Made by a program: the position numbers and the translations under genes. Of a DNA stretch of 64,000 nt, positions 1-64,000 are shown one piece after another (the first letter of the stretch is position 1; each line of letters begins with the position of its first letter). This DNA is from Octopus vulgaris. Its lineage: Eukaryota. The notes under the pieces are model-generated. The model had not been told where the DNA came from, ran no database searches, and was given only the letters and a program-made list of their open reading frames with translations. The stretch lies in contig OX597830.1 of the NCBI GenBank assembly GCA_951406725.2, forward strand, positions 51,398,001 to 51,462,000, read 5' to 3'.

Positions 1-1
1 C

Positions 2-3000
2 CCAAGAACATCACCACAAACATCAACAACCACACCAGAATCTACAACTACAAAAACAATACAAACCACAACTCATCCATCCATAACCACGGCAGAACCA
101 ACAACCACAACAGGACCAACACCAACAACTACAATCTCAACAACAACAACAAACACAAGTTCACCAATAATAACCACAAAAGTACCAACACACACAGCAA
201 CAGAACCAACTATAACATCACCAAGAACAATTACCACAGCAGAACCGGTATCAAGCACAACAAATCCAACATTATCATCCATACAAGAACCAACAACAAC
301 TACAAGAGATCGAACCACAACCACAACACAAGCAACATCAACCAAGGCAACACCAATTCCAGCAACCACAACTGAACCAGCAATAACAACAACGTTTCCA
401 ACAACGACCACTACTACACCAACAACGATAACCACCAAATTACAAACAAGAACAGCAACAATGCAAACAATAGCAACATCACCACCAACCACAACAGCAT
501 CACAACAAGCAACAACAAATACAAAAGCACCAACATCAACATCAATAGAAACAACATCGTCCGAAACATCCCCAATTACATCCACAAAAGAACCTTTATC
601 AAGCACAATAGAACCAGTAATAGCAACTACAACTTTACCAACAACAATAAAACCAGCAACAACAGCCACACATTTATCTACAGAGACAATACCATCAACA
701 ACAATTAGTACTACTAAGCCAAGAATAAGGACAATGGAAGGGACAACAAGAGCTGAATCAACAACTGCAACACTACCAGCAACAACAACAGAACTAACAT
801 TTACCAAGCGAACAGGAACAAGAACAAGAACAACGGTGCCGACAGTAACAGCAGAAACAACAACAGCAACAACAGGAGCAATGAAAACCGCCGCAGATCT
901 AAATACGATAACCACAAAAGAGCAAGTAACTTCAACCAAGGCAACAGCTACAACCGAATCACCACTAGAAACAACTACAACACAAACAAAAACAACACCC
1001 ACAACCGGAATCGAACCAACAACAACCACAACAGCCCCACTACCAAGAACAGCAACGAAACCAACTCTAACGACTACAATAGAACCAAAAATAACAATAC
1101 CAACAACAACCAAAACATCACCAGCATCAATAGCCACAGCAATAAATGTAACTACAACAGAACCGTCAACAACCACAGAAACAGTAACATCAGCTACAAC
1201 AAGCGCAACAACAATCATTACAGAACCGACAACAACGACAAGAGCACCAAAAACAACCACACCAGTAACTACAACAACCGCAACAGAGCCACCAACTACA
1301 TCTCCATCAAGAACAACGAAAACAGTACCAACAACCACTACAAAGGAACCATTAACAACATCTCAGACAACAAACACAGTAGTACCAACAACAACAACAA
1401 CTACTGGACCAACAACAATCACAACAGAACCAACAGCTGTCAACACGGCATCAGCAATTACTACAGAATCAACAGCGACCACAGCAGAAACGAGAACGAT
1501 ACCATCAACAACCACAATACCACCGACAACGACAACCACTACAAAACCAAAAACAGCCACAACAGAACCAAAAACAACCACAACAGAAGCATCAACAACA
1601 ACCGCATCAGAACAAACAATTATCAGAACAGTACTAACATCATCAATCACAACAGAGCCAAAAGCATCCCCGACAGAATCAACAGCAACGACTATTACAG
1701 GGGCGACAAAAAGCAACACAACACCAACTACTCCCAGAAGCACAACTACAAGCGAACCAACAACCACCGCAACAGAAACCCCAACAACATCAGTTCCAAC
1801 CACAGCCAAACTAGAACCAACAACAGCATTGCCACGAACAACAAGCAAAATTCAACAGACAACAACTGCAATGGAACCCACAATAACAGCATTTCTACGA
1901 ACAACAACCACCTCACAACCAATATCGACCAGAAGGTCGGAAACACCAATACAAACCATTGAACTAACAACAACACCAAGTGCAGCAACAACATCAACCG
2001 TGTCTACAACACGGACAACAGAACCGTCAACTATGTCATCACAACCGACGACTAAAACTACAACAAAATCTACATCAGAACCAATTACAGCAACCTCTTC
2101 ACCTGCAGCAAATACAAAACAACCAATAACAAGCAGAACAGAACCAACAGCTGTTACACCTGAGCCAATAACAACACAGCCAACAGCACCTATAACATTA
2201 ACAGAGCGAGCAACGACAACCACAACAGCACCAACAACAATTACAATAGAACCAACAAAAAGGACATCACCAACAACAACCCCAACAGCTCCAATAATAA
2301 CAACTCTATTAAGAACAACAGCACCAACAACAACAACCACAGCCGATCCGACAGCAATCACAACAGTACCAGAATCAGCAACCACAACAGAACCAACGAC
2401 AGCCTCACTATACCTAACAACGATAACCACAACAGAACCAACAATGTCATCACCACCAAGAGCAACCATAACAGAACCATCATTTTCAAGCACACAGGAA
2501 ACAACAGCAACAACCAGCGAACCAACAACAACGCCTTATGTAACAACAACAATCTCAGACACAACACCGAGTGCAACTTCAATAACAAGCTCAACAGAAA
2601 CATCAGCGACAACATCACAACTAACGTCAACTACAACAACACTAAGAACAACCACAAGTGTACCAACAACTGCAACATCTCCACCTACAGCAGACACAAC
2701 AGCACCAACAACAGCTACAAGAGAACCAACAGCTTTATCATTACCAACATCTACAACAGAACCTACAATAACAACATCACCAACAACAGCATCACCAATA
2801 ACAATATCACTAACAACAAAAACAGCATCAGCAACAAAAACAACATCCCCACCAGCTACCACCACAACTGAACCAAAAAGAAATACATTAGATCCTAGAA
2901 CAGCAGCCACAACACAACGAACAAGCGCCGCAGCTGAACCAGCAACAACAACAACGAAAGAAACTACATCCAAAATCACATCGGAAACAACAACAATCAC

Positions 3001-6000
3001 AACAGCACCAACAACAAGTACTTCAACAGCACAATTAAAGACCATAACAAAACCAATATCATTACCAACAACAACAACAACAACAACCACAACCCGAACA
3101 CAACCAGTTACAACAGCACCAATGCCAGCAACAACCACACTACAACTTGCAACAGCGACCACAAGAGAACCAACATCTACAAATACATCGGAAACACCAA
3201 CAACCACTATACTAACAGCAACAACAACCCCAACCACAACGCCAAGTGCAACGTCAACAACAGGCACAAATGAATCATCAGCAACAACATTACCACCAAA
3301 ATCAACTGCAATAGATCAAAGAACGATAACAACAATACCAACAACTAGAACATCTCCACCTTCAGCAACTTCAACAGGACCAACAACAACCATTAGAGAG
3401 CCAACAACTCCAGTAACAACCACAACAGATCAAACAACAATCACGAAAGCTCCAACAACAATAATCCCAACAGGACTAACAACGGCCACAACTGAACCAC
3501 CAACAACGTCACCGCAAATAACAACCATGCCAAAAACCACCACAGAACCAACAACAACCACAATAGAACCAATAACCGCAACTATAATAGAAGCAACAAC
3601 CACAAACACAATGAAACCAAGAGACGCATCCACGACTGAAGAAACAGCAACTACCGTCACAACACAACCAATAGCAACGTCCACAGAACTAACATCAACC
3701 ACAACACAAACAACCACAACACAAACCACCACGGAACCAACAACCACAACACAAACAAGAACCACCACGGAACCAACAACCACAACAACAGAAACGAAAA
3801 CCGCAATCACATCAAAACCAGCAACCACAACAGGACCAACAACTACAACAGAACCAAAATCTACAACAGAACCAACAATAACCACAACAGGACCAACAAC
3901 CACAGTCACAACGAAACAAACAAGTACAGCAGAACCAAAAATCACAACAGAACTAAAAGCCACAACAGAACCAAAGACCACAATCACAACAAAACCATCA
4001 ACAACTAAAACAGGATCAAAATCCTCAATCACAACAGACCAAATAACAACCACCACAGAACCAACAATAGCCACAACGGAAACAACAACCACAACAGATG
4101 CACCAACAACTGAAACAAAACCAACAACACACCCAACAGTACAAACAGCCACAACACCAACAACACCCAGAACACAAACAGCAACACCCACAGCACCAAC
4201 GACCACTACAATAGAACCAACAGCCACAATCACAACAGAAGCAACAACAGCTGCAACACAAACAACAACCACCAAAATAGGACCAACAGCCACAATCACA
4301 TCGCAACCAGCCACAACAAAAACAGCAACGGCCACAGAACTAACAACCACCCCAACAAGACCAACAACTACAATCACAACCGGGCCAGCAATCACAAGAC
4401 CAACAACCACAATCACAACACAAGAAACAACCATAACTGAACCATCAACAACCACAACACGACCAACAACAACAACAATGACAAGAGAACCAACAACAAC
4501 CACAACGCAGACATCAGCCACAACAGAACAAACAGCAGTCACAACAGAACCAATAATCACCACCACAACAGAGCCAACAACTATAATCACTACAGAACCA
4601 ATGACATCAACCACATCAGAACAAACAACAACGAAAACAATACCAACAACAACAATCACGACAGAGCCAGCAGCAACCACTGCCAAAGCACCGATAACCA
4701 CAACACAAACAACAATCTCAAGAGAACCAACAACAACAACAACTACTGAATCATCAAAAACTACAAGAAAACTAAAACTAACCACAATAGAACCAGAAAC
4801 AATCACAACAAAATCAACATCTATAATAGAGCCAAAACCAAGAACAAGAGAACCAATATTAACAACCATTACAAAAGCAACATCACCAACTGCCAGATCA
4901 GAATCTACAATAACGTCACCACAACCAACAACAACCGCAACACTACTGTCCATAAACACTACAGCACCACCAGCAAGTACATCATCATCAACAACAACCA
5001 CAAGACCAACAATAACAGCCACAACAGAACTATTAACAACCACTACAGAACCGACAGCAACCGCCACAGATCTATCAACCACAATCACAACAGAACGAGC
5101 AACAAACACTGCAGAACTGACAACAAACACAACAGAACCGCCAACTACAATCACAACAGAACGAACAACAACCACTACAGAACTGACAACAAACACAACA
5201 GAACCGCCAACTACAATCACAACAGAACGAGCAACAACCGCTACAGAACTGACAACAAACACAACAGAACCGCCAACTACAATCACAACAGAACGAACAA
5301 CAACCACCATAGAATCGATTACAAACAGACTAGTTCCAACAACCACATTAGAACCAACATTAACAACCGCAACAGAACCTACAATGTCATCACAAGCAAC
5401 AACCACAACAAAACCAACAACAATCAGAACACCAACCATAGCAACCACAATTAAACCAACATCTACAACTACATCAGGTACAACAACAACAGCTACAAAA
5501 GCAGCACCAACTCCAACCTCAACATTAAGCACTAAAGAACGAGTGTCAACAGCAGCAAGGGAACCAACAACAATCACTACACAACAAACAACTGCAACCA
5601 TCTCTGGACCAACATCTGCCACAACTGCAAGCACAACACCTACCACAACAGAAGCAACAACAACCACAGCAACATCAACACCTACAATATTGCATACCAC
5701 AAATAGAATGTCACTAACTAAGCCACGTACAACTGAAGCAAGCACACCCTTAGCGCATTCACCCTCTACAATCAGATACGAAACATCCAGCAACCTTGAA
5801 ACAGGTACTGTCACAACAGGAGGAGAAACTTCTCTACCATCGACAAGTACAGGCTCATTAGAATATAAACAGACACCCTCTATTACAACACAAGGTGCAC
5901 AAGATCTAACATCTTCAACCGTTACACTTTCATCTGTAGATGAGACTTCAGAATTTTCCACGCATGAAGAATCATCAAACTTAGCATTCCCTAATTCTCT

Positions 6001-9000
6001 TCCACCGACTCCGTCTACAGAAATGTATACGTCTTCTCAACACATTACAGAAGATTTCTCGAAGCATTCCACAAAATTTAACATTCCAGCCAACATGACA
6101 CAGGAACCATCTAAAACCACTACACACATCTCTACATCACAAACAACAGCAACAATGAAAAATATGAATACGCCAACTACTACTACTACTACATCACATA
6201 CTAGAGCAACAACAGACATCAATATTACACCAACAACTACACCAGACGCTACAGCAAAGACAAACATCACTACAACACAAACAGTAACAGAAATTACAAC
6301 GAATATACCGACAACTGCATCAGAAAAGTTGCGAATACCGCATCAAAATGATACAGCAACGAAAGACACCATGGTTACTCCGACTACTCCGTCACCAACG
6401 ACAGCAGTGACACACAAATCTTCAATTAGAGACACAACATCACAAAATATAGCAACAGACAAAACTATAACACAAACAACTACATCACAAACTACAGGCA
6501 CCACTGTTACACCAACCACTACATCACGAACCACAGCATCAACAGACACCACAGCTACACCAGAGACATCACGGACAACACCAACAACTACATCACAAAC
6601 AACATCAAGAACAGGCACCATTACAACACCAGCAAATACTTCGCAAAGTACAGCAACAACAGATAAAACTTCAACACCAGCAACTACATCACAAACTACA
6701 GCAACGGAAGTCACTACTACCACACAAACAACTACACAAGAAGCTACAATAACAACCGGCGCTACTACTACACCAGAAACTACAGCACAAACTACAGCAA
6801 CAACTGGTGTTTCTACGTCAGAAACTACACCTACTACACCACAAACTACAGCAACAGCAAGAACCACTACTAAATCAGGAACTACATCACAAACCACAAC
6901 AACAGAGGACACTACTATCACACAAACAACTACACCAGAAACTACAGCAACACCAGGAGCTACTACTACACAAACAACTACACCACAAACTACAGCAACA
7001 GCAGGAACCATTACTATACCTACAACTACATCACAAACTACAGCAGCAGAAGGCTCTACTGCCACACAAACAGCTACACCAGAAACTACTGCAACAACAG
7101 GCGCAACTACAATGCCAACAACTACAACACAAACTACAACAACAACAATCACCAAAACTACATCAGAGACTACAGCAACAGCAGGAACCACTACTAAACC
7201 AGCTACTACATCACAAACTGCAGCAACAGAAGGCACTACTACCACACAAACAACTACACAAGAAGCTACAATAACAACCGGCGCTACTACTACACCAGAA
7301 ACTACAGCACAAACTACAGCAACAACTGGTGTTTCTACGTCAGAAACTACACCTACTACACCACAAACTACAGCAACAGCAAGAACCACTACTAAATCAG
7401 GAACTACATCACAAACCACAGCAACAGAGGACACTACTATCACACAAACAACTACACCAGAAACTACAGCAACACCAGGAGCTACTACTACACAAACAAC
7501 TACACCACAAACTACAGCAACAGAAGGCTTTACTGCCACACACACACCTACACCAGAAACTACAGCAACAACAGGCGCTACTACTACTACACCAACAACT
7601 ACAACACAAACTACAGCAACAAGAGTCACCAAAACTACACCACAAACTACAGCAACAGCAGGAACCACTACTAAACCAGCTACTGCATCACAAACTGCAG
7701 CAACAGAAGGCACTACTACCACACAAGCAACTATACCAGAGAATGCAGCAACACCTGGAGCTACTACTACACCAACAACTACAGCACAAACCAAAATTGC
7801 ACCCACTACTACATCACAAACTACAGCAACAACGGTCAAAACTACATCACGAACTACAGTGACAAAAGACTCCATAGCTACAGCAAACACTACGTCACAG
7901 ACAACAGCAACAACAAACCTTCCTACTACACTAACAACTACATCACAAACTACAACAGGCACCCGTACAACACCATCGACTACATTACAAACAAGAGCAA
8001 CAGCAGATGGTAGTACTACTACACTAGCAACTACATCAGAAAGTACACCAACAGAAGGCAGTAATATCACACCAGCAACTACACCACAGACTACAACACC
8101 AGGAACCACTAGTACACCTACAACTACAACACAAACTACGCCAACAAAAGGCACCACTATAACATCAACAACTACACCACAAACTACAGTAACAGTGAGT
8201 ACCACTACCATGCCACTCACTACAACGCAAACTACAGCAACACTAGGCACAACTGTTAAACCACACACTATGACACATACTACAGCAACAGTGGGCACCA
8301 CTACTACACAACCCACTACAATACAAACTGCTGCAAGGACAAGTATCATTACTACCCCAGCAACTACATCTTACACTACATCATCAACAGGCACCACTAG
8401 TACATCAGCAACTACATCAGAAACTACACCAACGACCGACATTAGTACCATACAAGTAACTACACCACAAAGCAAAGTAACAGCGGGTACTCTTTCTACG
8501 TCATCAACTACATCACAAACTACAGCACTGAATGATACAGATATTACACCAACAACTACACCACAAGCATCAACAACAGCAGACACTACAACCGCACCAA
8601 CAACTACTTCACACACCACAGCAATGCCAGGCACCCCTACAACACTAGCAACTACGACACAAACTACGGCAGTAACAGGTACAACTACCACAGACACAAC
8701 TATAGCACAAACTACGGTAACAGCAAATACTACTACCACACCTCCAACTACATCACAAACAACAGCAACAATAGACATCACTACTGCACCAGCAACTACA
8801 TCACAAACTACAGCAACATCAGGCACTACTGATACGCCAGCAACTATGCGTAGTATTACTACAGCGGAAACTACATCCCAAACTACACCAACAGCAGGCA
8901 CCACTAGTACATCAGCAACTACATCAGCATCAACAACAACAGACAATACTACATCACCAACAACTACAACACAAACTAACGTAACTGCTAGTACTACTAA

Positions 9001-12000
9001 GACAACACAAACTACAGCAATAACAGATACTCCTACTACACCATCAACTACAACACAAACTACAGAAGCAACAGATACCACTACTCCACCAACAACTACA
9101 TCACAAACGACATCAACGGCAGCAGGTGCCACTACTACACCACTCACTACAACACAAACTACGGCAATAACAGATACCATCACTACACCACACACTACAA
9201 CACAAACTACAGCAATAACAGATACCACTACTACACCACACACTACAACACAAACTACAGCAATAACAGATACCACTACTGCACCACTCACTACAACACA
9301 AACTACGGCAATAACAGATACCACTACTGCACCACTCACTACAACACAAACTACGGCAATAACAGATACCACTACTACACCACTCACTACAACACAAACT
9401 ACGGCAATAACAGATAACACTACTGCACCACTCACTACAACACAAACTACGGCAATAACAGATACCACTACTACACCACCCACTACAACACAAACTACAG
9501 CAACAACAGATACCACTACTCCGCCTACAACTACATCACAAACTACAGCAATAACAGATACCACTACTACATCACCCACTACAACACAAACTACAGCAAC
9601 AACAGATACCACTACTCCGCCTACAACTACAACACAAACTACAGCAATAACAGATACCACTATTACACCACCAACTACAACACAAACTACAGCAATAACA
9701 GATACCGCTACTACACCACCAACTACAACACAAACTACAGCAGCAGCAGATACCGCTACTCCGCCAACAACTACAACACAGACTACAGCAATATCATATA
9801 CCACTACTAATGCAACAACTACATCACAAACTACAACAACAACAGATACCACTACTCCGCCTACAACTACATCACAAACTACAGCAACAACAGATATCAC
9901 TACTACACCATCAACTACAACACAATCTACAGCAATAACAGATACCACTAATACACCACTAACTACATCACAAAATACATCAAGTGCAGCAGGTGCCACT
10001 ACTACACCACAAACTACAGCAATAACACATACCACTACTACACCACTTACTACAACACAAACTACAGCAATAAGAGATACCGCTACTACACCATCAACTA
10101 CAACACAAACTACAGCAACAATAGATACCACTACTCCGCCTACAACTACATCACAAACTACAACAACAACAGATACCAGTACTCCGCCAACAACTACAAC
10201 ACAAACTACAGCAATAACAGATACCACTACTACACTACCCACTACAACACAAACTATAGCCACAACAGATACCGCTACTCCGCCAACAAGTACAACACAA
10301 ACTACAGCAATAACGGATACCACTACTATACCACCCACTACAACACAAACTACAGCAACGAAAGATTCCACTACTCCTGCAACAACTACAGCACAAACTA
10401 TACCAATAACAGATACCACTACTACACCACTTACTACAACACAAACTACAGCAACAAGAGACACCACTACTCCGCCAACAACTACAACACAAACTACAAC
10501 AATAAGAGATACCACTTCTACACCACAAACTACAGCAATAACAGACACCACTACACCGCCAAGAACTACAACACAAACTAGCGAAATAACAGATACCACT
10601 ACTACACCAACAACTGCAACACAAACTACAACAACAAGAGACACCACTACACCGCCAACGACTACAACACAAACTACAGCAATAACAGATACCACTACTA
10701 CACCACCAACTACAACACAAACTACAGCAAAAAGAGACATCACTATTCCGCTAACAACTACAACACAAACTACCGCAAAGACGGATACCACTACTACAGC
10801 ACCAACTACAACACAAACTACAGAAACAAAAGATTCCACTACTCCTGCAACAACTACCGCACAAACTGCAGCAATAACAGATAGCTCTATTACACCACAA
10901 ACTACAACAATAACTACAGCAATAACAAACACCACTACACCACCAAGAACTACAACACAAACTACAGCAATAACAGATACCACTACTACACCACCAGCTA
11001 CAACACAAACTACAGCAAAAACAGATACCACTACTACACCACCAACTACAACACAAACTACAGCAACAACAGACACCACTACTCCGCCAAGAACTACAAT
11101 ACTCCTTACAGCAATAAAAGATACCACAACTACCACATCAACTACAGCACAAACCACATCAACGGCAGCAGGTGCCCCTACTACACCACACATTATAACA
11201 AAAACTACAGCAATAACAAATACCACTACTACACAACCGACTATAACACAAACTAAAACAACAACAGATACCACTACTACTACAACACAAACTACAGCAA
11301 CAACTGATACCATTACTACGCTAACAGCTACTTCACAAACTACTGCAACGGCAGCAGGTGCCAGTACTACACCACCCACTATAACACGAACTACAGCAAT
11401 AAGAGATACCACTGCTACACCACCAACTACAACACAAGCTGCAGCAACAACAGACACCACTACTCCGGCAACAACTACAGCAATAACAGATACCACTAGT
11501 ACACCACCAACTATAACACAAACTACAGCAATAACAGATACTACAGCTACACCACCAACTACATCACAAACGACATCAACGGCAGCAGGTGCCACTACTA
11601 CACCACCCACTACAACACAAACTACAGCAACAATTGATACCATTACTACACCACCAACTACAACACAAACTACAGCAACAACAGTTACCACTACTACACC
11701 ACCAACTACAACACAAACTACAGCAATAACAGATACCACTACTAAATCACCCACTACAATTCAAACTACAGCAACAACAGATACCATTACTATACCACTC
11801 ACTACAATACAAACTACAGCAACAACAGATACCACTACTACACCACACACTACAACTCAAACTACAGCAACAACAGATACCATTACTACACCACCAACTA
11901 CAACACGCACTACAGCAATAACAGATACCACTACTACACCACCAACTACATCACAAATGACATCAACCGCAGCAGGTGCCACTACTACACCACAAACTAC

Positions 12001-49900: not shown

Positions 49901-52900
49901 AACAGAACAAATTACCACATCAGAACCAACAAACAAAACGGAACTGACAATCACAACAGCTCCAACAACCTCAAGAATATCAGCAGCCACAACTATACCC
50001 ACAACTACAATAAAACTAACATCCACCTCAGAAGCCATAATTACAACAAAACCGACAACTACAGCAGAATCAACAGCCACAAAAGTACTCACAACCAAAA
50101 CAGAACCGAAAACCACTACAACACCAACAACCAAAACAAAGACAACTGCCACAACTGAACACACAACTACAACAATGCCAACAAGCAAAACAGCAAAAAC
50201 AACCACAACAGAACCAACACGCACAACAAAACCAACAACTACAACAGGATTAACAAACATAACACAACCAAGAATCACAGCAGAAACAACAACCACAACA
50301 GTAGAAACAACCTCACCAGAAACAAAAACCACTACAATGCCAACAACCACACAAAAACCGACCACAAGAGATCCAGCAATCACATCAGAGACCATAACCA
50401 CAAGAGAAGACACAACTACACCAGAACCAACAACCACAACAGAGCCGACAACAACAACAATAGCAACAACCACAACAGAACCATCAACCACAACAAAGGC
50501 AACAACCACAAGAGAACCCACAAATACAACAGAACTAAACACCACAAAAGAAACTACAACCATAATAGAACCAACCGCTACAACAGAACCGACAAGCACG
50601 ACAGGACCAAGAACCACAATGGAACCAAAAACCTCAACAACGTTAACAACCAGAAGAAAGCCAACAACTACAACAGAACCAACTACCAAACGAGCACCAA
50701 CAGATACAAAAGAACCGACAGCCAAAGCAGCACGAACAACCACAATAGAATCGACAAGAACAACAATACTAACGACCACATCAGAAACTACAATTATAAC
50801 GAAACCAACAACCTCAACTGTCTCAACAACCACAACAATGCCATCATCCACAACAAGACCAACAGCCACAACATTACCAACAACCACAACAATACCAACA
50901 ACCACGAATGAAGCAACAAACACAAAAGAACCAAAACCTACAACAGAACCCACAAACACCACAGAACCAACAACCACAACAGAACCCACAAACACAACAG
51001 AACACACGACCACAACAGAACCAACAACCACAGCAATACCAACAACCACAACAAAACCAGCAACCACAACAATAAGAACAACCACAAAAATACCAACAAC
51101 CACAACAGAACCCACAACCACAGCAATACCAACAACCACAACAGAACCAACCACCACAACAATACCAACAACCACAAAAGAACCAACAACCACAACAATA
51201 CCAACAACCACAACAATACCAACAACCACAACAGAACCAACAAGCACAACAGAACCAACCACCACAACAATACCAACAACCACAACAATACCAACAACCA
51301 CAACAGAACCCACAACCACAACAGAACCAACAACCACAACAACACCAACAACCAGAACAATACCAACAACCACAACAATACCAAAAACCACAACAATACC
51401 AACAACCACAACAGAACCCACAAACACAATACCAACGACAACAACAGAACCCACAACCACAACAGAACCCACAACCACAACAATACCAGCAACCACAACA
51501 ATACCAACAACCAGAACACACAACCACAACAGAAACCACAAGCACAACGATACAAACGACAACAACGATACCATTAACAACAACAGAACCCACAACCGCA
51601 ACAGAACCAACAACCACAATACCAAAAACCACAAAAGAAAAAACAACCACAACCACAACAGAACCCACAACCACAACAAAACCAACGACCACAACAATAC
51701 CAACGACCACAACAATACCAATAACAAGAACAGAACCAACAACCACAACAGAACCCACAAACACAACAGAACACACGACCACAACAGAACCAACAGCCAC
51801 AACAATACCAACAACCACAACAAAACCAACAACCACAACGATACCAACAACCACAACAATACCAACAACCACAACAGAACCCACAACCACAACAATACCA
51901 ACAACCACAACAATACCAACAATCACAACAGAACCCACAACCACAACAGAACCAACAACCACAACAATACCAACAACCAGAACAATACCAACAACTACAA
52001 CAATACCAAAAACCACAACAATACCAACAATCACAACAGAACCCACAACCACAATACCAACGACAACAACAGAACCCACCACCACAACAGAACACACAAA
52101 CACAACAGAACCCACAACCACAACAATACCAGCAACCACAACAATACCAACAACCAAAACAGAACACACAACCACAAGAGAAACCACAAGCACAACAATA
52201 CCAACGAACAACGATACGATTAACAACAACAGAACCCACAACCACAATACCAAAAATCACAAAAGAAACAACAACCACAAACACAACAGAACCCACAACC
52301 ACAACAAAACCAACGACCACAACAATACCAACGACCACAACAATACCAGTAACAACAACAGAACCAACAACCACAACAGAACCCACAAACACAACAGAAC
52401 ACACGACCACAACAGAACCAACAGCCACAACAATACCAACAACCACAACAAAACCAACAACCACAACAATACCAACAACCACAACAATACCAACAACCAC
52501 AACAGAACCCACAAGCACAACAGAACCCACAACCACAACATTACCAACAACCACAACAGAATCAAAAACCTCAACAATACCAACAACCACAAAAGAACAA
52601 ACAACCACAACAATACCAACAACCACAACAGAACCTACAAGCACCAGAGAACATACAACCACTACAGAACCCACAACCACAACAATACCAACAACCACAA
52701 CAATACCAACAACCACAACGATACAAACAACCACAACAGAACCCACAACCAAAATACCAACGACCACAACAGAACCCACAACCACAACAGAACCCACAAC
52801 CACAACAGAACCCACAATTACACCAATACCAGCAACCACAACAATACCAACAACCACAACAGAACACACAACCACAACAGAAACCACAACCATAACAATA

Positions 52901-55900
52901 CCAACGACCACAACGATACCATTAACAACAACAGTACCCACAACCACAACATTACCAACAACCACAACAGAACCAACCACCAATACAATAACCAGCAACC
53001 ACAAAAGAACGAACAACCACAACAATACCAACGACCACAACAATACCAGTAACAACAACAGAACCAACAACCACAACAGAACCCACAAACACAACAGAAC
53101 ACACGACCACAACAGAACCAACAGCCACAACAATACCAACAACCACAACAAAACCAACAACCACAACAATACCAACAACCACAACAATACCAACAACCAC
53201 AACAGAACCCACAACCACAACAGAACCCACAACCACAACATTACCAACAACCACAACAGAATCAAAAACCTCAACAATACCAACAACCACAAAAGAACCT
53301 ACAAGCACCACAGAACACACAACCACAACCACAACAATACCAACAACCACAACAATACCAACAACCACAACAGAACCCACAACCACAACAGAACCAACAG
53401 CCACAACAATACCAACAACCACAACAGAACCTACAAGCACCACAGAACACACAACCACAACAGAACCCACAACCACAACAATACCAACAACCACAACAAT
53501 ACCAACAACCACAACAGAACCCACAACCACAACAGAACCAACAGCCACAACAATACCAACAACCAGAACAATACCAACAACCACAACAATACCAAAAGCC
53601 ACAACAATACCAACAACCACAACAGAACCCACAAACACAATACCAACGACAACAACAGAACCCACAACCACAACAGAACCCACAACCACAACAATACCAG
53701 CAACCACAACAATACCAACAACCACAACAGAACACACAACCACGACAGAAACCACAATCACAACAATACCAGCAACCACAACAATACCAACAACCACAAC
53801 AGAACACACAACCACAACAGAAACCACAAGCACAACAATACCAACGACAACAACGATACCATTGACAACAACAGAACACACAACCACAATACCAACAACC
53901 ACAAAAGAAACGACAACAACAACCACAATGGAACCCACAACCACAACAATACCAACGACCACAACAATACCAACGACCACAACAATACCAATAACCACAA
54001 CAGAACCAACAACCACAACAGAACCAACAGCCACAACAATACCAACAAACACAAAAGAACCAACAACCACAACAATACCAACAACCACAACAATACCAAC
54101 AACCACAACAGAACCTACAAGCACAACAGAACCCACAACAACAACAGAACCCACAACCACAACAATACCAACAACCACAACAATACCAACAACCACAACA
54201 ATACCAACAACCACAACAATACCAACAACCACAACAGAACCCACAACCAAAATACCAACGACCACAACAGAAACCACAACCACAACAGAAACGACAACTA
54301 CAACAATACCAGCAACCACAACAATACCAACAACCACAACAGAATACACAACAACGGAAACAACAACGGAAACCACAACCACAACGATACCAACGACCAC
54401 AACGATACCAATAACAACAACCACAATACCAACAACCACAATAGAAACAACAACCACAACAGAAACGACAACAACAACAATACCAGCAACCACAACAATA
54501 CCAACAAACACAACAGAGCCCACAACCACAACAGAACCCACAACCACAACAATACCAACGACCACAACAATACCTAAGACCACAACAATACCAATAACCA
54601 CAAGAGAATCCACAACCACAACAGAACCTACAACCACAATACCAACAGCCACAAGAGAAGCAACAACCACAACAATACCAACAATACCAACAACCACAAC
54701 AGAACCCACAACCACAACAGAACCCACAACCACAACAGAACCCACAACCACAACAGAATCCACAACAACAACAGAACCCACAACCACAACAGAACCCACA
54801 ACCACAACAGAACCCAAAACCACAACAGAACCAACAACTACAATACCAACAACCACAAAAGAAGCAACAACCACAACAATACCAACAACCACAACAATAC
54901 CAACGACCACAACTGAAACCACAACCACAAGAGAACCAACAACCACAACAGAGCCCACAACCACAACAATATCAACGACCACAACAATACCAACAACCAC
55001 AAAAGAACAAACAACCACAACAGAACCTGAATCTAAAACAGAACTCACAGCCACAACAGAACCCACAACCACAACAAAACCAACATCCACAGCAGAACCC
55101 ACAACCACAACAATACCAACAACCACAACAGAGCCAACCACCACAACAATACCAACAACCACAACAATACCAACAACCACAAAAGAACCCACAACCACAA
55201 CAGAACCCACAACCACAACAATACCAACAACCACAGCAATACCAACAACCACAATAATACCAACAACAACAACAATACCAACAACCACAACAATACGAAC
55301 AACCACAACAATACCAACAACCACAACAGAACCCACAACCACAACAGAACCAACAATCACAGAAATACCAACAACCACAACAATACCCACAACCACAACA
55401 GAACCCACAACCACAACAGAACCCACAACCACAACAGAACCCACAACCACAACAATACCAACAACCACACCAATACCCACAACCACAACAGAATACACAA
55501 CCACAAAAATACCATTAACAACAACAGAACCCACAACCGCAACGGAACCAACAAACACAATACCAACAACCACAAAAGAAGCAACAACCACAACAATACG
55601 AACAACTACAACAATACCAACAACCACAACAATACCAACAACCACAACAGAACCCACAACCACAACAGAACTCACAACAACAACAGAACCAACAACCACT
55701 ATACCAACAGCCACAAAAGAAGCAACAACCACAACAGAAACTACACCCACAACAGAACCCACAACCACAACAGAACTCACAACCATAACAATACCAATGA
55801 CAACAACAATGCCAATAACCACAACAGATCCAAAAACCACGACAGAACCAACAACCACAATACCAACAAGCACAAACGAAGCAACAACCACAACAATACC

Positions 55901-58900
55901 AGCAACAATAATAATACCAACAACCACAACAATACCAACAACCATAACAGAACCCACAACCACAACAGAACCCACAACCACAACAGAACCAACAACCACA
56001 ACAAAACCAACAACCACAACAATACCAACAACCACAACAGAACCCACAACCACAACAGAACCCACAACCACAACAATACCAACAACCACAAAAGAACCAA
56101 CAACCACAAAAGTACCAACAACCACAACAATACCAACAACCACAACAATACCAACAACCACAACAGAACCCACAACGACAACAATACCAACCACCACAAC
56201 AATACCAACAACCACAACAATACGAACAACCACAACAATGCCAACAACCACAACAATACCAACAACCACAACAATACCAACAACCACAACAGAACCCACA
56301 ACCACAACAGAACCCACAACCACAACAATATCAACAACCACAACAATACCAACAACCACAAAAGAACCAACAACCACAAAAGAACCAACAACCACAACAA
56401 TACCAACAACCACAACAATACCAACAACCACAACAGAACCCACAACCACAACAGAACCCACAACCACAACAATACCAACCACCACAACAATACCAACCAC
56501 CACAACAATACCAACCACCACAACAATACCAACAACCACAACAATACCAACAACCACAACAATACCAACAACCACAACAGAACCCACAACCACAACAGAA
56601 CCCACAACCACAACAATACCAACAACCACAACAATACCAACAACCACAACAGAACACACAATCACAACAGAACACACAACCACAACAGAACACACAACCA
56701 CAACAGAAACCACAACCACCACAAATCCAACGACCACAACAATACCATCGACCACAACGGAACCCACAACCACAACAATACCAACGACCACAACAATACC
56801 AACGACAACAACAATGCCAATAACCACAAGAGAAAACACAACCACAACAGAACCAACAACCACAATACCAACAGCCACAAAAGAAGCAACGACCACAACA
56901 ATACCAACATCTACAACAGAACCCACAACCACAACAGAACCCACAACCACAACAATGCCAACGACCACAACAATACCAACGACCACAACAATACCAACAA
57001 CCACAACAGAACCCACAACCACAACAGAACCAACAACCACAATACCAACGACCACAACAGAACCCACAACCACAACAGAACCCACAACCACAACAGAACC
57101 CACAACCACAACAGAACCCACAACCACAACAGAACCCACAACCACAACAATACCAACGACCACAACAATACCAACGCCCACAACAATACCAACAACCACA
57201 ACAGAACCCACAACCACAACAGAACCAACAACCACAATACCAACGACCACAACAGAACCCACAGCCACAACCACAACAATACCAACAACCACAACAATAC
57301 CAACAACCACAACAGAACCCACAACCACAGCAGAACTAACAACCACAATACCATCGTCCACAACAGAACCCACAACCACAACAATTCCAACGACTCCAAC
57401 AATACCAACGACCACAACAGAACCCACAACCACAACAGAACCAACAACCAGAACAATACCAACAACTACAACAATACTAACAGCCACAACAGAAACCACA
57501 ACCACAACAGAACCCACAACCACAATATCAACGACCACAAAAATGCCAACGACCACAGCGATGCCAACAACCACAACAATACCAATAACCACAACAGAAC
57601 CCACAACAACAATACCAACAACCACAAAAGAAGCCACAACCACAGCAATACCAACAACCACAAAAATACTTACAACCACAACAATACCAACAACCACAAC
57701 AGAACCCACAACCACAACAGAACCCACAACAACAACAGAACCCACAACAACAACAATACCAACGACCACAACAATACCAACAACCACAACAGAACCCACA
57801 ACCACAACAGAACCTACGACCACAACACCAACGACTACAACAGAACCAACCACCGCAACAATACCAAAAACCACAACAATACCAACAACCTCAACAGAAC
57901 CCACAACCACAACAGAACCCGCAACCACAACAATACCAACAACCACAACAATACCAACAACCACAACAATACCAACAACCACACCAATACCCAACAACCA
58001 CAACAGAACCCACAACCACAACAGAAACCACAACCACAACAATACCATTAACAACAACAGAAGCCACAACCGCAACAGAACCAACAACCTCAAAAGAAGC
58101 AACAACAACAATACCAACAACCACAACAATACCAACAACCACAACAGAACCCACAACCACAACAGAACTCACAACAACAACAGAACCAACAACCACAATA
58201 TCAACAGCCACAAAAGAAGCAACAACCACAACAGAAACCACAACCACAACAGAACCCACAACCACAACAGAACCCACAACAATACCAATGACGACAACAA
58301 TGCCAATAACCACAACAGAACCAAAAACCACAACAGAACCAACAACCGCAATACCAACAACCACAAAAGAAGCAACAACCACAACAATACCAATAACCAT
58401 AACAATACCAACAACCACAACAATACCAACAACCATAACAGAACCCACAACCACAACAGAACCCACGACCACAACAGAACCAACAACCACAACAATACCA
58501 ACAACCACAACAATACCAACAACCACAACAATACCAACAACCACAACAGAACCCACAACCACAACAGAACCCACAACCACAACAATACCAACAACCACAA
58601 AAGAACCAACAACCACAAAAGAACCAACAACCACAACAATACCAACAACCACAACAATACCAACAACCACAACAGAACCCACAACGACAACAATACCAAC
58701 CACCACAACAATACCAACAACCACAACAATACGAACAACCACAACAATGCCAACAACCACAACAATACCAACAACCACAACAATACCAACAACCACAACA
58801 GAACCCACAACCACAACAGAACCCACAACCACAACAATATCAACGACCATAACAATACCAACAACCACAAAAGAACCAACAACCACAAAAGAACCAACAA

Positions 58901-61900
58901 CCACAACAATACCAACAACCACAACAATACCAACAACCACAACAGAACCCACAACCACAACAGAACCCACAACCACAACAATACCAACCACCACAACAAT
59001 ACCAACCACCACAACAATACCAACCACCACAACAATACCAACAACCACAACAATACCAACAACCACAACAATACCAACAACCACAACAGAACCCACAACC
59101 ACAACAGTACCCACAACCACAACAATACCAACAACCACAACAATACCAACAACCACAACAGAACACACAATCACAACAGAACACACAACCACAACAGAAC
59201 ACACAACCACAACAGAAACCACAACCACCACAAATCCAACGACCACAACAATACCATCGACCACAACGGAACCCACAACCACAACAATACCAACGACCAC
59301 AACAATACCAACGACAACAACAATGCCAATAACCACAAGAGAAAACACAACCACAACAGAACCAACAACCACAATACCAACAGCCACAAAAGAAGCAACG
59401 ACCACAACAATACCAACATCTACAACAGAACCCACAACCATAACAGAACCCACAACCACAACAATGCCAACGACCACAACAATACCAACGACCACAACAA
59501 TACCAATAACCACAACAGAACCCACAACCACAGCAGAACTAACAACCACGATACCAACGACCACAACAGAACCCACAACCACAACAGAACCCACAACCAC
59601 AACAGAACCCACAACCACAACAGAACCCACAACCACAACAGAACCCACAACCACAACAATACCAACGACCACAACAATACCAACGCCCACAACAATACCA
59701 ATAACCACAACAGAACCCACGAACACAGCAGAACTAACAACCACAATACCAACGACCACAACAGAACCCACAGCCACAACCACAACAATGCCAACGACCA
59801 CAACAATACAAATAACCACAACAGAACCCACAACCACAGCAGAACTAACAACCACAATACCATCGTCCACAACAGAACCCACAACCACAACAATTCCAAC
59901 GACTCCAACAATACCAACGACCACAACAGAACCCACAACCACAACAGAACCAACAACCAGAACAATACCAACAACTACAACAATACTAACAACCACAACA
60001 GAACCCACAACCACAACAGAACCCACAACCACAACAGAACCCACAACCACAACAATACCAACAACCACAAAAGAACCAACAACCACAACAGAACCAACAA
60101 CCACAACAATACCAACAACCACAACAATACCAACAACCACAACAGAACCACAACCACAACAATACCAACCACCACAACAATACCAACAACCACAACAATA
60201 CCAACAACCACAACAATACCAACGACCACAGCGATGCCAACAACCACAACAATACCAATAACCACAACAGAACCCACAACAACAATACCAACAACCACAA
60301 AAGAAGCCACAACCACAGCAATACCAACAACCACAAAAATACTTACAACCACAACAATAACAACAACCATAACAGAACCCACAACCACAACAGAACCCAC
60401 AACAACAACAGAACCCACAACAACAACAATACCAACGACCACAACAATACCAACAACCACAACAGAACCCACAACCACAACAGAACCTACGACCACAACA
60501 CCAACGACTACAACAGAACCAACCACCGCAACCACAACAATACCAACAACCACAACAATACCAACAACCTCAACAGAACCCACAACCACAACAGAACCCG
60601 CAACCACAACAATACCAACAACCACAACAATACCAACAACCACAACAATACCAACAACCACACCAATACCCACAACCACAACAGAATACACAACCACAAC
60701 AGAAACCACAACCACAACAATACCATTAACAACAACAGAAGCCACAACCGCAACAGAACCAACAAACACAATACCAACAACCTCAAAAGAAGCAACAACA
60801 ACAATACCAACAACCACAACAATACCAACAACCACAACAGAACCCACAACCACAACAGAACTCACAACAACAACAGAACCAACAACCACAATATCAACAG
60901 CCACAAAAAAGCACAACAACAACAGAACCCACAACCACAACAGAACCCACAACCACAACAGAACCCACAACAATACCAATGACGACAACAATGCCAATAA
61001 CCACAACAGAACCAAAAACCACAACAGAATCAACAACCGCAATACCAACAACCACAAAAGAAGCAACAACCACAACAATACCAACAACCACAACAATACC
61101 AACAACCACAACAATACCAACAACCATAACAGAACCCACAACCACAACAGAACCCACAACCACAACAGAACCAACAACCACAACAAAACCAACAACCACA
61201 ACAATACCAACAACCACAACAATACCAACAACCACAACAGAACCCACAACCACAACAGAACCCACAACCACAACAATATCAACAACCACAACAATACGAA
61301 CAACCACAAAAGAACCAACATCCACAACAGAACCAGAATCTACAACAGAACCCACAACCACAACAGAACCCACAACCACAACAGAACCCACAACCACAAC
61401 AAAACCCACAACCACAACAATACCAACAACCACAACAGAACCAACAACCACAACAGAACCCACAACCACAAAAATACCAACAACCACAACAATACCAACA
61501 TCCACAACAATACCAACAACCACAACAATACCAACAACCACAACAACGCCAACAACAACAACAGAACCCACAACCACAACAGAACCCACAACCACAACAT
61601 TACCAACAACCACAACAATACCAACAACCACAACAGAACACACAACCACAACAGAACCCACAACCACAACAATTCCAACGACCACAACAATGCCAACGAC
61701 CACAACGGAACCCACAACCTCAACAATACCAACGACCACAACAATACCAACGGCAACAACAATACCAACAACCACAACAGAACACACAACCACAACAGAA
61801 CCAACAACCACAATACCAACTGCCACAAAAGAGGCAACAACCACAACAATACCAACATCCACAACAGAACCCACAACCACAACAGAACCCACAACCACAA

Positions 61901-63999
61901 CAATGCCAACGACCACAACAATACCAACGACCACAACAATACCAACGACCACAACAATACCAATAACCACAACTGAACCCACAACCAAAGCAGAACTAAC
62001 AACCACAATACCAACGACCACAACAGAACCCACAACCACAACAGAACCCACAACCACAACACTACCAACGACCACAAGAATACCAACGTCCACAACAATA
62101 CCAATAACCACAACAGAACCCACAATCACAGCTGAACTAACAACCACAATGCCAACGACCACAACAGAACACACAACCACAACAATGCCATTAACCACAA
62201 CAGAACCCACAACCACAGCAGAACTAACAACCACAATGCCATCGACCACAACAGAACCCACAACCACAACAGAACCCACAACCACAACAGAACCCACAAC
62301 CAATACAATTCCAACGACCCCAACAATACCAACGACCACAACAGAACCCACAACCACAACAGAACCAACAACCAGAACAATACCAACAACTACAACAATA
62401 CTAACAACCACAACAGAACCCACATCCACAACTGAACCCACAACAACAACAGAACCCACAACCACAACAATATCAACGACCACAACAATACCAACGACCA
62501 CAACAATACCAATAACCACAACAATACCAACAACCACAAAAATACCAACAACCACAACAGAACCCACAACCACAACAGAACCCGCAACCACAACAATACC
62601 AACAACCACAACAATACCAACAACCACAACAATACCAACAAACACAACAATGCCAACAACCACAAGAGAACCCACAACCACAACAGAACCTACAACCACC
62701 ACACCAACGACCACAACAGAACCGACAACCACAACAATACCAACAACAACAACAATACCAACAACCACAACAGAACCCACAACCACAACAGAACCCACAA
62801 CCACAAAAATAACAACGACCACAACAATACCAACGACCACAACAATACCAATAACCACAACAGAACCCACAACCTCAATACCAACAACCACAAAAGAAGC
62901 TACAACCACAACAATACCAACAACCACAACAATACCAACAACCACAACAATACCAACAACCACAAAAATACCAACAACCACAACAGAACCCACAACCACA
63001 ACAGAACCCGCAACCACAACAATACCAACAAACACAACAATGCCAACAACCACAAGAGAACCCACAACCACAACAGAACCTACAACCACCACACCAACGA
63101 CCACAACAGAACCGACAACCACAACAATACCAACAACCACAACAATACCAACAACCACAACAATACCAACAACCACAACAATACCAAAAACCACAACAGA
63201 ACCCACAACCACAACAGAACTCACAACCACAACAGAACCAAAAACCACAACAATACTAACAACCACCACAATACCAACAACCACAACAGAACCCACAACC
63301 ACAACAGAACCCACAGCCACAACTATACCAACGAACACAACAATACCAACGACCACAACAATACCAATAACCACAACAGAACCCACAACCACAACGGAAC
63401 CAAAAACCACAACAATACCAACGACCACAACAATACCAACAACCACAACAATACCAACGACCACAACAGAACCCACAACCACAACAATACCAACAACCAC
63501 AACAGAACCCACAACCACAACAGAACTTACAACTACAACAGAACCCACAAACACAACAGAACCCACAACCACAACAGTACTAATAACCTCAACAGAACCA
63601 ACAACCACAACGATACCAACAACCACAACAATACCAACAACCACAACAGAACCCACAACCACAACAGTACCCACAACCACAACAGAACCCAAAACCACAA
63701 CAATACCAACGACCACAACAATACCAACGACCTCAACAGAACCCACAACACCAGAAGCAACAACCACAAAAGAAGCAACAGCCACAACAATACCAACAAC
63801 CACAACAGAACACACAACTACAACAGAACCCACAACCACAACAATGCCAATGACCACAACAATACCAATAACCACAACAGAATCCACAACCACAGCAGAA
63901 CCAACAACCATAATACCAACAACCACAAAAGAAGCAACAACCACAACAATACCAACAACCACAACAGAACCCACAACCACAACAAAACCCACAAACACA
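2..63999 (+). CDS. Giant Thr-rich mucin-like (PTS-domain) glycoprotein, internal fragment, about 21,300 codons after correcting small indels; open at both window edges
   Basis: Continuous ACN-dominated codon periodicity across the whole window. The translation is Thr-dominated with Pro, Glu, Ala, Ile, Gln and Ser, and I saw no Cys or Trp. One Thr-rich frame can be followed end to end through 11 frame switches. No GT..AG intron with a polypyrimidine tract is visible. Confidence 0.85.
5078..5312 (+). repeat. 66-bp (22-aa) tandem repeat, about 3.5 copies, TTITTER(A/T)TxxxELTTNTTEPP
   Basis: Near-identical gaactgacaacaaacacaacagaaccgccaactacaatcacaacagaacga recurs at 66-bp spacing. Confidence 0.9.
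5687..6120 (+). other. Non-repetitive Ser/Glu-rich in-frame spacer (about 145 aa)
   Basis: Translation ILHTTNRMSL...IRYETSSNLETG...DETSEFSTHEESSNLAFPNSLPPTPSTEMYTSSQHITEDFSKHSTKFNIPANMTQEP. T and G content is visibly higher than in the flanks. Confidence 0.85.
6130..14965 (+). repeat. QTT-family array I: 48-bp (16-aa) unit, consensus TTTPxTTTQTTA(I/T)TDT
   Basis: Recurrent actacaacacaaactacagcaa(c/t)aacagataccactactac at about 48-bp spacing, most regular at 9130-14340. Rich in ACT codons. Confidence 0.92.
15686..15845 (+). repeat. 51-bp (17-aa) tandem repeat x3, RPTITTKQTKTTNPTTT
   Basis: aga cca aca ata acc at 15692, 15743 and 15794. The copies look identical. Confidence 0.93.
16330..20790 (+). 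repeat. QTT-family array II: 15/16-aa TSTTPATTSQTTATTG units with a 237-bp higher-order repeat
   Basis: actacatcacaaactacagca recurs every 45-48 bp. The MGSTYATPE marker occurs at 18131, 18368, 19031, 19268 and 19505, with a variant near 17896. Confidence 0.9.
21990..25060 (+). repeat. 21-bp (7-aa) minisatellite array A: gaa cca aca aca acc aca aca (EPTTTTT; variants EPTTTTA, EKITTTA, EQITTTT)
   Basis: Roughly 145 near-perfect tandem units, estimated from length, and entirely in frame. Confidence 0.95.
34921..35227 (+). CDS. Segments 2-3: EPTTTTT repeat continues in frame +1 (34921-34968), then frame +2 (34970-35227)
   Basis: Extra A at about 34969 (gaa cca A aca aca gcc). A further shift occurs at about 35228 (aca aca A aca aca gaa), where 'cc' of acc is missing. 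Confidence 0.7.
35229..37982 (+). CDS. Segment 4 (frame +3) of the mucin-like tract
   Basis: Thr-rich part of ORF 36513..38879 plus its open upstream frame. It ends at an extra A at about 37983 (gaa A cca). Confidence 0.8.
37984..49266 (+). CDS. Segment 5 (frame +1), about 3,760 codons
   Basis: ORF 38755..49332 plus its open upstream frame. The Thr frame is lost at about 49268 (gaa tcg ac- aca aca aca gaa), a 1-bp deletion. Confidence 0.85.
42410..48770 (+). repeat. 18/36-bp array: EPIPTT alternating with EQRITT, EQTTTT or EPATTT hexapeptides
   Basis: gaa cca ata ccc aca aca / gaa caa aga atc aca aca / gaa cca gca acc act aca recur in strict 18-bp register. Confidence 0.93.
49269..51512 (+). 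CDS. Segment 6 (frame +3)
   Basis: Thr-rich part of ORF 49419..52223. The shift is at about 51513 (aca acc A gaa cac), where sister units read acc aca aca gaa cac. Confidence 0.8.
51514..52990 (+). CDS. Segments 7-8: frame +1 (51514-52206), then frame +2 (52208-52990)
   Basis: Shifts at about 52207 (cca acg A aca acg ata) and about 52991 (aca ata A cca gca acc). The antisense Val-rich ORFs switch frame at the same points. Confidence 0.72.
52992..57989 (+). CDS. Segment 9 (frame +3)
   Basis: First Thr-rich part of ORF 53862..61976 plus its upstream frame. One extra base occurs at about 57990 (cca ata C cca aca acc). Confidence 0.8.
57991..60147 (+). CDS. Segment 10 (frame +1)
   Basis: Thr-rich part of ORF 58288..60261. 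A 1-bp deletion occurs at about 60149 (gaa cc- aca acc). Confidence 0.8.
60150..60908 (+). CDS. Segment 11 (frame +3)
   Basis: Second Thr-rich part of ORF 53862..61976. It ends at two 1-bp deletions at about 60909 and 60914 (aaa -aa gca -ca aca, versus aaa gaa gca aca acc in the sister copy near 58210). Confidence 0.78.
60916..63999 (+). CDS. Segment 12 (frame +1), 3'-partial, runs off the window
   Basis: IPTTTT/EPTTTT codons in frame +1 to the last base. It is mirrored by the single-frame antisense ORF 60894..63998 and is absent from the track because it has no stop. Confidence 0.8.
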
Positions 64000-64000
64000 A

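Follow-up and report, generated by a model that had tools for sequence, protein, structure and literature searches.

We analysed a 64,000-nt stretch of Octopus vulgaris contig OX597830.1 (the window), which lies within an 85.6-kb Thr/Pro-rich tract. This tract probably forms a single exon (exon 2) in an octopus gene for a MUC4-type membrane mucin with a predicted ~30,100 residues, its frameshifts being assembly errors. We put the probability of this reading at roughly 0.68. A wider claim, for which the odds are about even, is that no larger protein-coding exon has so far been described, whatever the organism: 85.6 kb in one frame, coding for a ~30,100-residue MUC4-type surface mucin of ~3 MDa (before glycans), whose single Cys-free filament could reach ~7 µm and be switched off by the skipping of one exon.

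In order to find the ends of the tract, 100 kb of flanking DNA was fetched on either side of the window. Coordinates are given on the window scale carried into the flanks, so that the position on the contig (C17) is 51,398,000 plus the coordinate. The Thr-rich tract runs from −15,555 to 70,050 (85,606 nt, C17:51,382,445-51,468,050), contains no N, and overshoots the window by 15.6 kb upstream and 6.05 kb downstream. The initial annotation had described both ends as open and had proposed at least 64 kb of mucin coding sequence with more than 21,000 residues. The ends do lie outside the window, and the tract turned out to be larger, with ~28,500 codons. The A/C-rich composition holds between about −15 kb and +70 kb, beyond which it gives way abruptly to AT-rich, microsatellite-rich DNA. 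The tract consists of 83% A+C, with 21.5 CA per 100 nt. Its residues are 48.9% T, 11.0% P, 7.7% E and 4.8% S (P+T+S 64.7%); 15,307 of its 28,486 codons are for Thr or Ser, and none is for Cys.

Within the window, frame +2 is free of stops from 2 to 34,918 (34,917 nt, 11,639 codons), as the initial annotation had noted, and its translation is 48% Thr. Counting the upstream flank, the longest uninterrupted stop-free frame is 38,790 nt (−3,871 to 34,918). Thr-codon periodicity was present in all 64 one-kb bins of the window, which is free of N, though the frame changes. The unbroken periodicity claimed earlier stands; the frame itself is discontinuous, with 13 indel events in the window, a point that the initial annotation had only implied. 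A frame-tracking script was used to follow the Thr-codon frame along the tract. In this frame there were no stops in 28,486 codons, compared to ~217 expected from the position-specific composition; past the first stop in the window, none was found in 11,687 codons, compared to 48 expected. Most codons of the zero-stop path sit in segments hundreds to thousands of codons long. Open reading frames (ORFs) of up to 11.5 kb on the reverse strand were rejected as shadows of the repeat.

The flanks were also inspected for splice sites, as had been proposed for checking the tract. The predicted exon 2 is bounded by a phase-1 AG on its 5' side, at −15,555, and by a phase-1 GTAAGT on its 3' side, at 70,050; all 29 predicted introns are of the GT-AG type. 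The absence of intron-like sequence, claimed from the window, held for the whole tract: no T-rich or intron-like segment was found in it, T amounts to 8.4% compared to 31–32% in the flanks, and GTRAG sites number 5 in ~85.6 kb compared to 110 and 133 in the 84-kb flanks. Internal splice sites were scored with weight matrices made from the gene's own sites, the acceptor threshold being the third-weakest true score. No acceptor in the tract downstream of 30,891 reached this threshold (two weaker ones score 4.1 and 4.5). Since the nearest good acceptor upstream is at 30,891, an exon that uses the distal donor would be at least ~39 kb long even if the tract were split. For the same reason hidden introns are a poor explanation for the 12 of 18 indels that lie beyond 30,891. 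None of the 38 AATAAA hexamers of the tract has a G/T-rich downstream element beside it.

Read contigs were aligned to the two ends of the tract. A contig of read set X8 (762 nt; RNA by guess) aligns over 567 nt (L013:5484-6050) and stops exactly at the donor at 70,050, leaving 195 nt unaligned, and the DNA run X2 continues past 70,050 into the intron. From the end of this putative RNA contig, use of the distal donor is probable. The same 3' junction is also present in the O. bimaculoides gene model A0A0L8G4Q7, as judged by alignment. Putative-RNA contigs were found on the first 3.5 kb of exon 2 in four of four runs (depth roughly 3–7), and none on the 336 intron bases compared, save one 34-nt repeat piece. 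We infer that the tract is probably a single, in-frame exon of ~85 kb.

Frame tracking revealed 18 indel events in the tract (14 uncompensated indels and 2 compensated pairs), 13 of them inside the window and 5 outside. Those listed at 34919..60912 are mostly of 1–2 nt and lie in A/C runs of the repeats. The compensated pair 34,919/34,969 brings a TAG into frame, and nine uncompensated switches lie in the window between 35,228 and 60,912. Judged against the sister repeats, 10 of the 18 indels are single-base (±1) slips in an A or C homopolymer. The indel at 67,122 (3.1 kb past the window end) was absent in all three read sets that cover it (X1, X2 and X8, from 3 studies), each with a net +1; read set X11 gave no cover there. 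At this place the assembly carries a 29-nt exact copy of the sequence 107 nt upstream, a finding compatible with an error of polishing or of the consensus, or else with a private conversion. The 8.7-kb repeat exon of a paralog in the same assembly has 3–4 frame switches of a like kind. Apparently, the scattered frameshifts are likely to be assembly errors. A human pangenome preprint gives ORF maintenance of 94.8–100% for most mucins and of 84.8% for MUC1, the latter ascribed to sequencing error, and reports a complete ORF of MUC19 in no long-read haplotype (PMC13345508). Thus, errors and true frameshifts both have a precedent. A local patch near 66,680 (L013:2680-2698) also differs from the assembly: X1 and X2 agree there on 3 additional nt plus several substitutions, in frame.

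The predicted gene has 30 exons. The 28 exons downstream of the tract have GT-AG ends and form an in-phase chain of 1,551 codons without stops, which brings the total to ~30,100 residues; the expectation of a protein near titin scale is borne out by this prediction. Exon 1 appears to code for a signal peptide, judged from its hydrophobic run and phase, and no RNA junction at its donor was found among the contigs of the putative-RNA runs. Pfam was run on 17 translated pieces, 4 of which had no match. NIDO (PF06119) was found with E 4.8e-8 on one exon (4.3e-23 in the ortholog), C8-3_MUC4 (PF23263) with E 1e-7 and EGF_CA with E 1e-9. VWD (PF00094) stayed under the cut-off on the two exons over which it is split (E 0.002 and 0.0065), and the GDPH motif lies in exon 8. 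AMOP (PF03782) stands at the expected position with E 0.015, under the cut-off, and is absent from the results for the full ortholog. A juxtamembrane SEA domain is the mark of membrane mucins such as MUC1, MUC12, MUC16 and MUC17; the SEA-like exons here have an Atlas feature score of 0.79 to SEA clusters, which is a lead only, and no Pfam match. No cytoplasmic tail was found in the gene model. A CFAP91 match at the start of exon 2 (E 0.002, under the cut-off) was rejected as chance. By its layout of NIDO, AMOP-like, VWD, EGF and transmembrane (TM) segments, the gene is likely a MUC4-type membrane mucin. Among the terminal domains that had been listed for checking, those of the MUC4 layout were recovered (NIDO, AMOP-like, VWD, EGF, TM), but not those of gel-forming or chitin-binding types.

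The predicted VWD exon is 98% identical to the O. bimaculoides "mucin-like protein" XP_052830075.1, and the exon-by-exon identity is ~85–99% where the alignments stay inside exons. By these alignments the O. bimaculoides protein is taken as the direct ortholog. Its model starts at exon 3 and holds none of the tract. In the UniProt model A0A0L8G4Q7 the final ~270 tract residues are followed by exon 3, with the same junction as in our prediction, and the related record UPI000695822F covers the first 735 residues with 90% identity in an alignment that opens at the first full codon. The tract thus appears, at both ends, conserved as coding sequence in related records, which are gene models and not transcripts. 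XP_052830075.1 and A0A0L8G4Q7 lack the signal-peptide and TM exons. The initial annotation had supposed that the gene may be unannotated; the O. bimaculoides records do miss most of the tract, but this was shown for the records of that species only.

Features of the tract and of the predicted gene (window coordinates, extended into the flanks)
Feature	Position	Strand	Basis or remark
Exon 1, 58 nt, ATG, hydrophobic run, phase-1 GTAAGT donor	-17,313 to -17,256	+	1.7 kb upstream of tract
Middle 64 kb of predicted exon 2 (85,606 nt, phase 1-1)	1..64000	+	Composition, frame, splice-site-like ends
Stop-free frame +2, portion of the 38,790-nt frame beginning 3.9 kb before the window	2..34918	+	ORF scan
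Thr/Gln/Asp/Ala block, 48-nt (16-aa) unit and higher-order units	6578..20404	+	Tandem Repeats Finder, translation
Glu-Pro-Thr5 (21-nt) arrays, broken by a degenerate spacer at ~25,100-32,900	21782..39291	+	Tandem Repeats Finder, frame tracking
Compensated indel pair within the stop-free frame, ~16 codons outside the Thr frame	29750..29797	+	Frame tracking
11 frame-changing indels (34,919, 34,969, 35,228, 37,983, 49,267, 51,519, 52,207, 52,991, 57,990, 60,148, 60,912)	34919..60912	+	Frame tracking
Thr-frame segment (frame +1), second in length within the window, 3,761 codons free of stops	37984..49267	+	Frame tracking
Degenerate spacer, then Glu-Pro-Ile-Pro-Thr block at ~42,300-48,800	within 37984..49267	+	
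Ile-Pro-Thr4 / Glu-Pro-Thr4 (18-nt) block, ~2.5-kb higher-order units	50900..64000	+	Tandem Repeats Finder
Exons 3-13: NIDO, AMOP-like, VWD with GDPH, C8-3_MUC4, linker	71,626-88,531	+	
Exons 14-26: 13 EGF exons, phase 1-1	89,364-129,001	+	
Exons 27-29: possible SEA-like domain	138,629-150,356	+	Lead only
Exon 30: hydrophobic run, then basic residues, likely anchor	178,505-178,634	+	Phase and position only

The tract is composed of at least 8 distinct repeat blocks with degenerate or unique spacers between them. Unique 40-mers make up 79% of it, and the longest exact repeat is 331 nt. The sole near-identical long duplication is that of 56,006-57,482 and 58,515-59,991 (98.8%). Among 85 one-kb windows, just 2 are matched by a copy of 97% identity or more, and none by one of 99%. 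This scarcity of near-identical copies argues against a false expansion of the arrays, and false duplication could explain ~2.5 kb of the length. The least unique arrays are those at 33-38 kb and 51-64 kb. In repeat bins, contig depth correlated with assembled copy number (rho 0.56–0.82, 28 bins); this correlation was set aside and not used as support, since depth does not equal copy number and is fed by other loci as well. Contigs of X8 and X11 depart from the assembly at the same base near L023:3776 (L023:3297-3776, ~12 kb upstream of the window). There the X11 contig picks up again at a repeat copy lying earlier, which suggests an allele with another repeat number. The length is probably variable between alleles.

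Several observations weigh against the single, intact exon. A stop penalty was used in choosing the zero-stop path, and the GAA-to-TAA test is weak or uninformative in tight Glu-Pro-Thr arrays (0 seen; other GAA transversions 0–6 each). The other 8 of the 18 indels are no simple homopolymer slips (losses of 2–5 nt or complex events, as the −5 nt at 51,519). The read check reached one indel, and the other 17 were judged from the sequence. The read sets may derive from individuals other than the assembled animal, in which case the patch at 67,122 could represent a true allele of the latter. A single genuine frameshift would cut the protein short, and the first indel lies at −7,535. The "RNA" status of the read sets is a guess (none is recorded as RNA), the putative-RNA depth in unique parts is ~3–7, and the X8 contig ends in 195 nt without an alignment. 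The exon 2 acceptor is weak (score 5.2, third weakest of 29), and a junction at it is absent from the contigs of the 4 putative-RNA runs. The tract holds 18 donor-like and 10 acceptor-like internal sites (146 and 154 in 82.6 kb of flank). The read contigs were aligned at the two ends, and no read or contig spans the interior of the tract.

These observations bear on three other explanations. It is unlikely that the exon is real and the allele carries true frameshifts, which would give a truncated, anchor-less or degraded product as for human MUC19. The 18 indel events, 8 of them beyond single-base homopolymer slips, and the MUC19 precedent (PMC13345508) are consistent with it, but the 28,486 codons carry not a single nonsense substitution, the exons downstream of the tract are intact and near those of the ortholog, the sole frameshift checked with reads is missing in three of three runs, and the repeat exon of the paralog has the same pattern of frame switches. 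We also consider it improbable that repeat-like introns divide the tract into several large exons, or that internal donors yield much shorter forms, so that no 85-kb mRNA exon exists. The internal donor-like and acceptor-like sites, the confinement of the putative-RNA check to the tract ends, and the central intron of spider AgSp1 (PMC6553539) agree with such a structure. However, nowhere in the tract is there a T-rich, stop-rich segment, the Thr frame has no stops throughout, and with the distal donor probably in use the last good acceptor, at 30,891, still leaves an exon of at least 39 kb. Finally, the gene and the exon may be real and the assembled length wrong by more than ~10 kb, through false expansion or collapse. 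This is doubtful as well: reads and assembly differ locally near 66,680 and 67,129, uniqueness is lowest in the arrays at 33-38 kb and 51-64 kb, and mucin alleles vary widely (the contigs differing near L023:3776; MUC12 alleles by 55 kb), but long near-identical copies are almost absent, the assembly is gap-free here, and at least 8 distinct blocks are set apart by unique spacers. We therefore prefer one exon of a MUC4-type mucin, with frameshifts introduced by assembly.

The family is large, with 637 representatives at E 0.001 or better, and the same genome holds 6 further matches, of which 4 are clear paralogs. Three NIDO-AMOP-VWD-C8-EGF paralogs form a tandem cluster at C6:99,366,876-99,577,313 (L061-L082). 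Before the NIDO of the second copy there is a Pro/Thr/Ser-rich (PTS) exon of ~1.4 kb (99,409,768-99,411,168), and before that of the third copy one of ~8.7 kb (99,537,338-99,546,051) with Ser/Thr/Asn repeats. A tandem paralog lies at C17:51,715,129-51,750,419 (L048-L051), ~240 kb downstream of the VWD exon of our gene. It has at least 9 near-identical EGF exons at ~1.13-kb and 2.36-kb spacing, which may be due to tandem amplification of exon and intron or to an assembly effect. No large PTS exon was found in the 76 kb before it. In any long relative checked (900 aa or more), PTS-rich 100-aa windows numbered at most 15. With an interior spacer (ORF residues 1880-2140) as query, proteins of 30-5,498 aa gave no match among 8,000 scored candidates. 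Mucin-like and mucin-4-like proteins have been detected in octopus skin mucus (PMC11431876, PMC10138644). The skin-mucus peptides examined belong to loci other than this gene, and four peptides of this gene were absent from the portion of the skin-mucus proteome supplement examined (PMC10138644).

Several further segments lie near the 3' exons. Two segments, 126,024-126,224 and 128,284-128,349 (L019:2024-2224, L019:4284-4349), are part of the O. bimaculoides RefSeq model with 82–94% protein conservation and stand outside the 30-exon chain. Candidate exons at L024:2763-2824 and L025:283-458 have the phase pattern of the SEA-like exons 27 and 29 and possibly belong to a second SEA-like unit, the middle exon of which was not found. 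Candidate exons at 166,763 and 174,283 are unplaced and outside the model. By eye, the introns and intergenic DNA contain reverse-transcriptase retroelement-like fragments and many dispersed repeats, for example at L004:4515-5966 and L022:7550-8470.

We compared the size of the tract with that of known exons. In a 2012 survey the exons of MUC16 (>21 kb), titin (>17 kb) and MUC5B (10.9 kb) are listed (PMC3467050), in agreement with the comparators of the initial annotation, which had put the tract at three times the known exons or more. These comparators have been superseded, and the margin did not hold. A 2026 long-read preprint describes human MUC12 alleles of up to 23,080 aa and calls the MUC12 exon the largest human exon; the PTS exon 2 of MUC12 is 32,382 bp in CHM13, MUC12 alleles differ by 55 kb, and the longest variable number tandem repeat (VNTR) allele of MUC4 is 27,843 bp (PMC13345508). 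Since 23,080 aa correspond to three times as many nucleotides, the MUC12 exon is shorter than 69.2 kb. The tract is thus ~1.25-fold the largest exon found in print and 3-fold the longest MUC4 allele. The spider gene AgSp1 spans 42,270 bp, with two ~21-kb exons and a central intron (PMC6553539), and PKZILLA-1 has 45,212 aa in 17 exons and is ~25% larger than titin (bioRxiv 2024.01.29.577497). Titin and PKZILLA-1 are built from many exons and AgSp1 from two, in contrast to the one exon proposed here. In the open-access literature, with PKZILLA per-exon sizes outside the scope, we found neither an exon larger than that of MUC12 nor a description of this gene. The octopus protein would be shorter than titin and would set no record of length; only the exon might.

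The closest known system is human MUC4, which is membrane-bound, carries its VNTR in exon 2, followed by domains of the NIDO, AMOP, vWD and EGF types, and is cleaved at GDPH; its isoforms MUC4/X and MUC4/Y skip exon 2 (PMC10754145). It reaches 1.12–2.12 µm off the surface, and shedding at GDPH is possible (PMC5355169). In the octopus gene, too, the PTS region is in exon 2 and is followed by NIDO, AMOP-like, VWD (with GDPH) and EGF domains. This likeness is one of domain layout, not of a gene tree. Human MUC4 has 3 EGF domains, whereas 13 EGF exons and a possible SEA-like domain are predicted here, and its VNTR consists of one unit, whereas the octopus tract is a mosaic of Thr-dominated blocks. 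The NIDO-AMOP-VWD-EGF core, with an AMOP-like element in the octopus, is common to this gene and to invertebrate mucin4-like proteins; such a protein of the coral skeletal matrix has the same core (PMC4890752). MUC12, too, is tethered and has its PTS region in one huge exon 2, at most ~0.8 of this tract in size. The C-terminus of MUC12 is of the SEA/EGF type, without NIDO, AMOP or VWD. Gel-forming mucins (MUC2/MUC5/MUC6) carry VWD-C8-TIL assemblies at the N-terminus, CysD domains within the PTS region and a cystine knot at the C-terminus. This type was rejected for the octopus gene: a signal-like exon directly precedes the tract, Cys is absent from all 28,486 codons, and EGF and TM exons stand at the end of the gene.

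By analogy with MUC4, the chain would enter the endoplasmic reticulum by the signal peptide of exons 1 and 2, and cleavage at GDPH would divide it into an outer subunit of enormous size and a small EGF/TM subunit that is anchored. The ~15,300 Thr and Ser residues would be densely O-glycosylated, which would make the outer subunit a Cys-free, non-gelling bottle-brush. At an extension of 0.25 nm per residue the filament would be several micrometres long, ~7 µm, and might serve in the epithelial glycocalyx or, when shed, as a mucus lubricant or barrier. The exon is likely to have grown by tandem-repeat slippage and block duplication. It is likely kept unspliced because its A/C-rich, T-poor sequence gives almost no internal acceptors. 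Since exon 2 is of phase 1-1, it could be skipped in frame, as in MUC4/Y.

The mechanism of MUC4-type mucins is already known, and it is the extreme size that would be new. The O. bimaculoides gene models examined omit more than 90% of this predicted protein. For enhancers of large exons, a C-rich sequence with CA at its centre has been reported (PMC3467050), and the octopus gene, if our reading is right, could serve as a natural experiment on the way in which exons of such length escape cryptic splicing and cleavage. If our reading is true, the ceiling for an internal exon defined by the spliceosome rises from <69 kb (MUC12) to 85.6 kb, and extreme exon sizes are not peculiar to mammals. The protein would then be a candidate for an unusually thick glycocalyx or mucus in cephalopods.

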